A stretch of 55,949 nt of DNA from Candidatus Falkowbacteria bacterium (lineage in GTDB: Bacteria > Patescibacteriota > Patescibacteriia > Patescibacteriales > UBA12465): the NCBI GenBank assembly GCA_009995495.1, contig JAACPL010000007.1, positions 1 through 55,949 of the forward strand, given 5' to 3'. Positions 53,920-55,482 of the stretch are shown one piece after another (positions within the stretch are counted from its first letter, which is position 1; the number at the start of each line of letters is the position of its first letter). The position numbers were made by a program, and so were the translations under genes. The notes below the pieces were generated by a model. It ran no database searches, was not told where the DNA came from, and saw nothing but the letters and a program-made list of their open reading frames with translations.

Positions 53920-54006
53920 GGAGAGGTGCCAGAGTGGTTGAATGGAACAGTCTTGAAAACTGTCGTGCCTTCACGGGTACCCAGGGTTCGAATCCCTGCC
54001 TCTCCG
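53920..54006 (+). tRNA. tRNA-Ser(UGA), no encoded CCA
   Basis: Acceptor GGAGAGG/CCTCTCC, anticodon stem ACAGT/ACTGT with loop CTTGAAA, long variable arm, T-loop GGTTCGAATCC, discriminator G. Confidence 0.9.
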
Positions 54007-55482
54007 CAGTTTGTCAATATCAGGATTTTCGGCATAATTAGCTAGGGCTTCAAAGGGTTCTTTGAAGTTAATCTTAGCTAATTTTTTGTTGGCAATTTCC
54101 GAGTTCCAAAGTATCTGATTTAGCATTTTCTGTTTGTCGTTTAAAGATATTTTGAAAAACGCTTTTTTCATTGATTTTGGGGCTAAAAAGAATTTTTTAG
54201 TGAGTTCCAAAGTTTCTTTTGTTAGGACGACTTCTTGTTCGTTTTCCAATTTTTTCAGAGCGTCATTAAAATCTTTTATCTCATTTTTTATAATAGTTTC
54301 TCTAGACTCATAATCTTTCGGGCTAATCTTTTTATCCAGCCGCAGATTAAATAATTCTTCTTTTCTATTCTCTCGTTTCTTAATTTCATTCAACAAATGA
54401 TTTTTAGATTCTAAATATTCTTGATTATCCGGATTATGATTAATTAATAATTCCAAACTGTTATCGTGCATTCGTTCCACCTCGTCCTCGTTAATAAACA
54501 AATGGTCAAAAACGCCTGACAGGGCTTTAATGACTTCTTTCTGGGTTAAGTAATGATTATGTTCGGAACATCCGCCTCGGCCGTTGGTGCAGTAGTAATA
54601 TACATAACGGTTTTTCTTGCGTGTGGCTGTTAGCAGACAGCCACACTTGGCGCAAATCATTAAACCTCTAAAATGAAAATGGGGTTGTTTCTTTTTAGGA
54701 TGTTGTTTTTCCGTCATTACTTTTTGACAGTCGGCATATAATTTTTTAGAAATTAGCGTTTCGTGCTTACCCTCGTATTCTTTGCCGTGGAATCTCATAA
54801 TTCCGCAATAGAAAGAATCATTAATAAGTTTATAGATTTTGCTTTTATGATATTTAACATTACCCCTGCTTCTAAATCCCTTATCATACATTAAATTAGC
54901 CAGTTCTTTCATTGTATAGTTTCCGGTAGCGTATAGCTTAAATATTTTCTTAATATATCTCGCCCTAATTCTATCAACCACGATTCCGCCTTTGCCGTCA
55001 TTCAAATAACCAATAGGAGCGAAGTTCGGCCAGAGTCCTTTTTCTATTTTGGTCAGTATTCCACGTTTAACATTTTTTGATAAGTCCAAAATATACTGAT
55101 TAGCCATTGAACCCTCAATATTTAAGAGGAGGACGTTGTCGCTCGGTAAGTATTGTCTATCGCTCGTCTGAATGGCCTTAATCTTGCCCTGTTGCAGTAG
55201 CCATTGGATTTTCCCGCTATCTATCGGATTACGAGAGAGGCGGTCAATTTTCCAGCAGAGAATGCCGTAATCTTCTTTGGTATTTTCTAGGAGTTTAACC
55301 ATTTTCAAAAATATCGGCCGATTATTCGGCAGTTTGGCACTTTTAGATTCGGTATAGACCAAATCAATAACCAGCCCTAAATTAGCGGCCAGTTTTTTCA
55401 TTTCGCTAACCTGGCTTTCCAGGGATAGAATTTGTTTGCTCTTATCTTCCGAGGACTTGCGAGCGTAAAGGATGTATTTCAT
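53971..55482 (-). CDS. large serine recombinase (resolvase/invertase N-domain, recombinase domain, zinc ribbon)
   Basis: N-terminal YARKSSEDKSKQILSLESQ (catalytic Ser region), WKIDRLSRN, recombinase domain, and CAKCGCLLTA...YYYCTNGRGGCSEH zinc ribbon with a coiled-coil tail. The last 12 codons and the TGA stop lie antisense within tRNA-Ser(UGA). Confidence 0.85.
   Translation of the reverse strand: MKYILYARKSSEDKSKQILSLESQVSEMKKLAANLGLVIDLVYTESKSAKLPNNRPIFLKMVKLLENTKEDYGILCWKIDRLSRNPIDSGKIQWLLQQGKIKAIQTSDRQYLPSDNVLLLNIEGSMANQYILDLSKNVKRGILTKIEKGLWPNFAPIGYLNDGKGGIVVDRIRARYIKKIFKLYATGNYTMKELANLMYDKGFRSRGNVKYHKSKIYKLINDSFYCGIMRFHGKEYEGKHETLISKKLYADCQKVMTEKQHPKKKQPHFHFRGLMICAKCGCLLTATRKKNRYVYYYCTNGRGGCSEHNHYLTQKEVIKALSGVFDHLFINEDEVERMHDNSLELLINHNPDNQEYLESKNHLLNEIKKRENRKEELFNLRLDKKISPKDYESRETIIKNEIKDFNDALKKLENEQEVVLTKETLELTKKFFLAPKSMKKAFFKISLNDKQKMLNQILWNSEIANKKLAKINFKEPFEALANYAENPDIDKLRRGRDSNPGYP

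Follow-up and report, generated by a model that had tools for sequence, protein, structure and literature searches.

A large serine integrase gene overlapping tRNA-Ser(UGA) and a probable family of small tRNA-associated elements in Patescibacteria

Introduction

The Islander report (PMC4383910) describes targeting of tRNA genes by integrative elements as known at that time only for tyrosine-family integrases, not for serine recombinases; 27 of 937 tycheposons of Prochlorococcus carry a large serine recombinase (10.1101/2020.12.28.424599). The original prediction on the locus studied here, made from its sequence alone, held tRNA targeting by a serine recombinase to be unusual, in agreement with the Islander report (PMC4383910). 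Here we analyze this locus, which lies in a stretch of 55,949 nucleotides (nt) from Candidatus Falkowbacteria bacterium (contig JAACPL010000007.1 of assembly GCA_009995495.1; hereafter “the window”). In the interval 53920-55482, a gene for a large serine recombinase runs antisense into the 3' part of a tRNA-Ser(UGA) gene. We consider this interval, with a probability of roughly 0.8, to be the attL-type end, next to the tRNA, of an integrated element of 3.65 kb, which would be a derivative, lacking a replication initiator (Rep), of a small-element family widespread in Patescibacteria.

Patescibacteria, or Candidate Phyla Radiation (CPR) bacteria, have tiny genomes, and to our knowledge very few mobile elements have been described in them. 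The family reported here is large and apparently undescribed in these bacteria: full-text literature searches returned no description of it, of an integrase/tRNA overlap, or of the two junction sequences that we term the D4 site and the GC-rich module.

Results

A serine recombinase gene shares its end with a tRNA gene

The window contains an intact tRNA-Ser(UGA) gene at positions 53920-54007 of the forward strand, called by both ARAGORN and Rfam (Rfam end 54006; 57.5 bits against a gathering score of 29). On the reverse strand, a recombinase open reading frame (ORF) of 503 amino acids (aa) at 53971-55482 points at the tRNA and shares 37 nt with it (53971-54007), so the antisense end that had been predicted inside the tRNA was borne out. 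Its terminal codons were also read correctly: on the opposite strand, the acceptor 3' strand, T arm, and variable arm of the tRNA supply the last 11 codons (RRGRDSNPGYP) together with the TGA stop (53971-53973). In our reading, the tRNA gene is an attL-type junction, with a chromosomal 5' part and a 3'-terminal part that is continuous with the element.

We collected relatives of the recombinase from 80 loci of species-representative genomes (75 with a full-length recombinase) and 79 metagenome loci (74 full-length). The gene ends antisense in a tRNA 3' end in 53 of the 75 full-length relatives from genomes and in 51 of the 74 from metagenome contigs. Across the combined 104 of 149 cases, which range from 34 to 93% identity, the tRNA end always aligns to residue ~492 of the query. 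Since this identical register recurs across full-length relatives, the overlap is not a product of chance. The same signature is visible in the proteins themselves: of the 120 best homologs (48-100% identity), 115 are full-length, and 85 of these have a tail with the T-loop-antisense peptide D[SL]N[PSLQ]; many homologous ORFs continue through an entire antisense tRNA.

The targets comprise six tRNA isotypes. Most loci lie at tRNA-Ser (78 loci, with the isoacceptors UGA, GGA, CGA, and GCU), followed by tRNA-Gln (14), tRNA-Val (5), tRNA-Tyr (5), tRNA-Pro (1), and tRNA-Asn (1). A family of elements using tRNA-Ser genes, at which the original prediction had hinted, therefore exists and accounts for 78 of the 104 overlapping loci. 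The possibility it had raised against itself, a fixed chromosomal arrangement, does not hold, given the six isotypes, the four tRNA-Ser isoacceptors, the differing neighborhoods, and the multiple copies per genome. Indeed, some genomes carry three or four copies, four being the maximum, and recombinases that are 92-93% identical occupy three tRNA-Ser isoacceptors that diverge at nt 64-66 of their 3' ends. The hosts are almost all Patescibacteria, including Falkow-, Magasanik-, Morani-, and Paceibacterota as well as Saccharibacteria. Among the 2.9 million viral contigs of IMG/VR, we found only three relatives, all distant, and for this reason the family does not look phage-borne; one of these, 34% identical, overlaps a tRNA-Gln gene as well. 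In two loci (L173 ~2730-2790 and L175 ~1590-1650), only the 3' half of tRNA-Asn comes after the recombinase tail. Homology ends in the anticodon loop, which would fit the insertion of another type of element at that point.

By its domain content, the enzyme is a large serine recombinase (serine integrase). Pfam recognized Resolvase (PF00239, 5.7e-17, residues 4-149), Recombinase (PF07508, 9.6e-14), and Zn_ribbon_recom (PF13408, 7.2e-09), and the protein matched PHROG 95 “integrase” at 3.9e-70. In an alignment of 25 relatives, the catalytic motif Y6, R8, S10 and the four-cysteine cluster C277/C280/C298/C305 are invariant, and residues ~330-470 form a long, charged, poorly conserved segment that is compatible with a coiled-coil insertion in the zinc-ribbon domain. 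The closest PDB chains are 3g13, a recombinase of a Clostridioides conjugative transposon, and 3bvp, the catalytic domain of TP901-1 integrase; these matches cover residues 2-153, being confined to the catalytic domain in the N-terminal 150 residues, with E values of about 1e-6.

The locus is a tandem array with displaced tRNA ends

The identical 503-aa protein occurs on 8 contigs. One of these, a 69.7-kb ENA contig (L001) with an identical recombinase gene (10001-11512, + strand), reaches 10 kb past the right end of the window. Extending the sequence in this manner revealed the second copy of the tRNA-Ser(UGA) 3' segment that the original prediction had proposed to search for. A block of 17 nt (window 53991-54007, + strand), comprising tRNA nt 58-73 plus one, is repeated exactly 3,649 bp from the tRNA (L001 7827-7843, about 1.7 kb past the window end) and again at 5,726 bp (L001 5750). 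The locus thus has the layout of a tRNA island, namely an intact tRNA, an integrase, and a displaced 17-nt 3' fragment at 3,649 bp. The foreign genes expected to the right of 55482 are present too: a 378-aa orphan gene, more recombinases, an IS481 transposase, and cassettes.

Outward from the tRNA, the 3.65-kb element consists of the serine integrase, a 690-nt upstream region with a long hairpin, the 378-aa orphan gene, a degenerate D4 site (L001 8044-8073), a terminator hairpin, and a structured GC-rich module of 180 nt (7827-7996), whose outer edge is the exact 17-nt copy of the tRNA 3' end. Beyond this module, L001 continues with three units of one gene apiece (224, 131, and 92 aa), each closed by a D4 site, and then with a second module (5750-5919) that is 97% identical to the first. 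A second recombinase in L001 is decayed, broken into three ORFs at 71-78% nucleotide identity, and its tail closes in the same tRNA-like 17-mer. The locus is a tandem array. The outer part of the island (L001 1-5700) holds a third serine recombinase (513 aa), an IS481-type transposase, two methyltransferases, and a radical-SAM/SPASM gene. The 378-aa gene and most cassette genes had no match in Pfam, PADLOC, or PHROG.

In L004 and L006, which come from other samples, a different recombinase tail lies directly ahead of the first module, and the breakpoint falls exactly at the 17-mer. Contig L115 is 99.96% identical to L001 1-8000 over 8.0 kb and then, in the region L115 12772-13087, leads to a real tRNA-Ser(GCU) gene. 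Its breakpoint coincides with the far end of the module, where the 378-aa gene, the recombinase, and tRNA-Ser(UGA) are replaced; two tRNA-Ser loci may have been rearranged, or the repeated module may have produced a chimeric assembly. In a further sample, the module-edge 17-mer reads GCGGAGAGGCGGGGATT (L093 ~2047-2063, corresponding to L001 7827-7843), which is the tRNA-Ser(GCU) version and differs by one base from the tRNA-Ser(UGA) version of L001.

The window contains a second occupied site of the same kind. Behind tRNA-Ser(CGA) (36537-36624, + strand) lies a gene-less mini unit of 227 bp (36627-36853, + strand) with two hairpins, a T-arm-like GGGTTCGAA, and a structured core rich in G+C (36700-36834). 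A direct repeat of 19 nt bounds the unit, in which the last 19 nt of the tRNA-Ser(CGA) site (36608-36626) recur at 36835-36853. The att-like scar previously noted at the other tRNA-Ser of the window consequently holds, as a duplication of the tRNA end over 19 nt.

D4 sites and GC-rich modules follow the displaced tRNA ends

Copies of the local tRNA end were found upstream in 18 of the 104 tRNA-overlapping loci, at distances of 3.6-11 kb. The lengths of identity cluster at 15, 17, and 19 nt, all ending in the T loop, and the copies agree with the local tRNA at variable positions, including in the tRNA-Gln locus L072. Two kinds of sequence follow these copies, the D4 site and the GC-rich module, and both are conserved markers of the distal ends of the elements.

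D4 is an att-like site of 27 nt with the consensus GCGGAGAG-nn-TGGGA-CGwAG-TTGGAAC. We counted 81 copies, spread over 60 loci; 80 of these lie on the recombinase strand, and shuffled sequence gave none. Positions 1-8 and 11-15 are conserved, while positions 9-10 are hypervariable, and the TTGGAAC of D4 sits 5 bp farther out than the TTCGAAC of the tRNA. When the tRNA-like half is compared with the local tRNA, mismatches fall within positions 5-14, usually at 5-11, and never at positions 1-4. Some recombinase tails are followed directly by D4. In several loci (L079, L026, L001), D4 sites separate single-gene units that are all oriented in the tRNA sense. For example, L079 (72-5198) has five D4 sites and units that contain orphan genes only, and L026 (2144-5273) has three D4 sites and units encoding RhuM/Fic, KilA-N, and a 333-aa reverse transcriptase, resembling the cargo of defense islands.

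The GC-rich module is 110-180 nt long, with a G+C content of ~60% in genomes of 33-40%. It lies between a T-arm-like GGG(A/T)TTCGAA and the copy of the tRNA 3' end, has constant ends (GGGATT and, opposite it, TTCGAATCC), and stands ahead of 14 of 63 D4 sites. Seven distinct sequences fit a common fold of three helices (32 pairs), in which 97.8% of positions are paired and 10 pairs show compensatory changes. The covariation score was 0.315, compared with 0.127 in shuffled alignments (none of 500 reached 0.315) and at most 0.089 with slid partners. The excess of G-T wobbles over A-C mismatches (14 against 2) suggests that it is the recombinase-sense strand that folds. No Rfam family matched the module; at gathering thresholds Rfam reported tRNAs only, and matches in the junction region were at chance level, with E values up to 5. 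As hypotheses only, we suggest that the module might serve as the minus-strand origin of a rolling-circle replicon and that D4 might at the same time be a site for Rep.

Three further interpretations of the module were rejected. Inversion of its core does not fit, as the core faces the same way, with respect to the tRNA-like end, in all 15 distinct copies. In L001, the module can pair with the tRNA end in an acceptor-like manner, but this pairing is not conserved in L014 or L072. Finally, the GC-rich core does not appear to have pre-existed in the target, as the uninterrupted palindromic T-arm site GGATTCGAATCC, considered as an attP, is missing from all loci.

Relatives carry a rolling-circle Rep gene

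In the clades at 40-55% identity, the gene directly upstream of the integrase encodes a rolling-circle Rep (Pfam REP_ORF2-G2P or Phage_CRI, PHROG 3419, with a weak Pfam match to RepSA). This gene stands beside the integrase in 47 loci, and in 38 loci it is preceded by a conserved gene of ~315 aa with no assigned function. The distance from the tRNA to the distal D4 is typically 4.6-7 kb, and a complete element of the family would be about 5-7 kb long, with a large serine integrase, the rolling-circle Rep, and the ~315-aa gene. No virion or packaging genes were recognized by PHROG or Pfam in the element or its relatives.

A model for integration and the position of the crossover

From these arrangements, we infer that the enzyme acts in integration and excision in the following manner. 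The integrase would recombine a site on the element with the 3' part of a tRNA gene. The exact repetition of the 17-nt block at the far junction points to strand exchange inside this block, that is, within the last 17 nt. The element-side half-site would consist of the last conserved integrase codons and a stretch that resembles a tRNA 3' end. Directly outside the tRNA, the conserved stretch gtttgtcaatatc (54009-54021), which encodes DIDKL, is a candidate for the outer part of this half-site; its TTG(A/T)CAA motif also stands beside a recombinase-less junction (L001 ~7815). Integration would then rebuild the tRNA 3' end from element DNA and leave the tRNA complete. The integrase ORF, having no stop of its own at this point, would read into the antisense strand of the tRNA, with its final codons and its stop provided by the host. 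In a free or displaced copy, the ORF would instead read into D4 or the module. Such alternative tails, RRGWDALGT... and RRGRDFRP..., do occur, and the recombinases that bear them look like displaced copies within arrays. New insertions beside the tRNA would shove older units outward, producing tandem arrays of displaced integrases and of recombinase-less single-gene cassettes.

The portion of the tRNA 3' end carried by the element could range from ~2 nt to 17 nt. There are three candidate crossover positions: the T-loop edge (nt 58-61), nt 65/66, and the acceptor 3' end (around nt 71-72). The 14 module-type junctions, at Ser and Gln targets, share 17 or 19 nt with the local tRNA, variable positions included, which argues for a crossover at the T-loop edge or further 5'. 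The acceptor 3' end is favored by the D4 mismatch pattern, the 5-bp shift of the D4 motif, and the 92-93% identical recombinases at three Ser isoacceptors. The position nt 65/66 was not adopted. D4 is hypervariable there, yet the dinucleotide is palindromic (GC) in the tRNA of the window, and a palindromic crossover dinucleotide is atypical for serine integrases. Palindromic dinucleotides occur at nt 65/66 in about a quarter of the targets, no more rarely than by chance.

Alternative readings of the locus

Several observations weigh against the integrated-element reading that we favor. In 86 of the 104 tRNA-overlapping loci, the 10 kb searched showed no distal copy of the tRNA end. Most D4 sites have a tRNA-like half that departs from the local tRNA, a mismatch for which a plain succession of insertions, with the tRNA restored each time, offers no explanation. 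No HUH rolling-circle Rep is present in the 3.65-kb element of the window, which we read as a reduced, Rep-less derivative. An unoccupied tRNA-Ser(UGA), which had been suggested as a comparison, was not found, as the element is present on each of the 23 contigs that carry the exact response regulator of its flank; an excision junction was likewise not found in this population, and no circular form was evident from matching contig ends in the 79 metagenome loci. Similarly, all contigs around tRNA-Ser(CGA) had the mini unit, with no empty site. The chromosomal flank showed no synteny with any of 170 related loci. In Logan short contigs of four runs, other tRNAs of the community dominated, with depths in the thousands. 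Overall, the element looks fixed in this population. Fixation would also suit a resident, non-mobile arrangement, in which a domesticated recombinase, such as an invertase or resolvase, overlaps the tRNA through gene crowding in a small genome; the element is in every contig of the population, the tRNA-Ser(CGA) mini unit is identical in 8 of the 8 contigs that span it, and no circles were found. However, relatives occupy Ser (four isoacceptors), Gln, Val, Tyr, Pro, and Asn genes with unrelated neighbors and in multiple copies per genome, and the displaced tRNA ends, decayed recombinase copies, and Rep genes point to repeated insertion. We therefore regard a resident arrangement as highly improbable, and at the family level as largely refuted. 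An integrated filamentous-phage-like (inovirus-type) prophage, suggested by the gpII-like Rep of the relatives, is also improbable, if slightly less so. The Rep matches (Phage_CRI / REP_ORF2-G2P and PHROG 3419) and the 5-7 kb element size fit such a phage, whose minus- and plus-strand origins the module and D4 could be, but morphogenesis or coat genes were not recognized, the 2.9 million viral contigs gave only the three distant matches, and the window's element has no Rep.

Two other readings accept mobility and differ in its mechanism. In one, the insertion is merely adjacent to the tRNA: the crossover lies around nt 71-72, the tRNA is left almost untouched, and the 11 overlapping codons and the stop are host DNA. 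The D4 mismatch pattern, in which only positions 1-4, counted from the 3' end, agree with the local tRNA and mismatches fall at 5-14, favors this crossover position. So does the constant D4 arm, with its TTGGAAC exactly 5 bp beyond the position of the tRNA TTCGAAC, an offset that resembles the one described between attP and attB half-sites for the A118-type integrase. The 92-93% identical recombinases at three isoacceptors would also be easier to explain if nt 64-66 were not borne by the element. However, the 17- and 19-nt module junctions are most simply seen as a displaced chromosomal 3' end, with a crossover at or 5' of nt 58-60, and we consider a merely adjacent insertion possible but doubtful. 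In the other, somewhat less probable still, the locus is an integron-like cassette platform anchored at the tRNA, in which D4 sites bound the cassettes and the integrase captures or shuffles single genes. The D4-gene-D4-gene arrays, with one gene per unit and a common tRNA-sense orientation in L079, L026, and L001, are as such a platform would predict, as are the abundance of D4, its near-complete confinement to the recombinase strand, its absence from shuffled sequence, and its conserved arms around a hypervariable dinucleotide. However, no cassette was shared by two arrays or seen as a circle, the arrays could equally well be the decayed remains of successive whole-element insertions, and both a tyrosine IntI and an attC-like folded site are absent.

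Additional features of the window

A sigma-70-like promoter (TTGCCA-17-TATAAT, 11 of 12 positions; 53866-53894, + strand) lies ~25 nt 5' of the tRNA on the chromosomal side. Farther out on this side, a response-regulator/histidine-kinase pair (51433-53702) is the chromosomal neighbor of the tRNA; the array of the element carries an unrelated receiver-domain protein (L001 7000-7674). Within the recombinase codons FKEPFEA, there is a perfect 8-bp palindrome, CTTCAAAG-ggtt-CTTTGAAG (54047-54066). This stretch is among the best-conserved nucleotide stretches in clade A and may constitute a DNA- or RNA-level signal in addition to its coding role.

The element-internal region upstream of the recombinase (55483-55949; repeat families D6 and D11) leaves the window at its end; in L001, the sequence ahead of the decayed second recombinase resembles it at 79-87%. 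The window region contains, ~130 nt ahead of the recombinase start, a near-perfect G+C-rich hairpin of 84 nt (55606-55689; DNA fold -29.7 kcal/mol, z = -6.1), possibly an operator, terminator, or origin. A related sequence lies upstream of the decayed recombinase (L001 4254-4283). In the outer island, a 61-aa ORF beside the radical-SAM/SPASM gene may form a peptide-maturation pair with it.

Discussion

If our reading is correct, tRNA genes would join the natural target range of large serine integrases, and would do so across a whole family. The family would also represent an abundant type of mobile element in Patescibacteria, with arrays that carry defense-like cargo such as reverse transcriptase, Fic, and KilA-N genes. 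Serine integrases are used as genome-engineering tools, and a compact target that is shared across species, with close relatives in different tRNA-Ser isoacceptors, offers a natural test case for target choice. Moreover, the GC-rich module is a new conserved folded element that has no Rfam family. A more ambitious synthesis, which we put forward tentatively and regard as possible rather than probable, would combine these features into a landing-pad system of serine integrases at tRNA genes, mostly tRNA-Ser, with integron-like arrays of single-gene cassettes bounded by D4, tiny rolling-circle autonomous members whose integrase genes borrow final codons and a stop from the tRNA of the host, and the GC-rich module at the recombination end.

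Several described systems share parts of this organization. Like the Islander/TIGER islands of tyrosine integrases, the family combines an intact tRNA and a displaced 3' copy with an integrase beside the tRNA and with tandem arrays; it differs in using a serine enzyme and in a short repeat (15-19 nt) that starts in the T loop. Tycheposons are likewise small tRNA-associated integrative elements that have cargo and replication genes and form islands, but they are cyanobacterial and overwhelmingly of the tyrosine-recombinase type, and an integrase/tRNA overlap, D4, and the GC module are unreported there. Integrative elements of actinomycetes of the pSAM2 type, with a RepSA Rep and an integrase at a tRNA, have in common with the Rep-bearing relatives the pairing of a rolling-circle Rep with site-specific tRNA integration. 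However, pSAM2 has a tyrosine integrase and transfer genes, whereas the Patescibacteria family has a serine integrase and no transfer genes were seen in it. The D4 arrays resemble integron arrays, in which single co-oriented genes are each trailed by a conserved recombination-type site, yet the recombinases here are of the serine type only, with no IntI, the anchor is a tRNA, and D4 is a 27-nt duplex-type site with no attC hairpin.

In archaeal integrases of the SSV1 type, attP lies inside the int coding sequence, so integration alters the ORF, as we propose for the Patescibacteria element. The SSV1 enzyme, however, is a tyrosine recombinase whose gene is split in two, whereas here the last few codons and the stop would be swapped. 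With the large serine integrases of phages and integrative and conjugative elements (A118/LI, TP901-1, Bxb1, phiC31, and CcrAB), the family shares the three-domain enzyme of Resolvase, Recombinase, and zinc ribbon. Those enzymes are known to target protein-coding genes or intergenic sites, whereas the Patescibacteria family is found at tRNA 3' ends and would have an att site that overlaps the 3' end of its own integrase gene.

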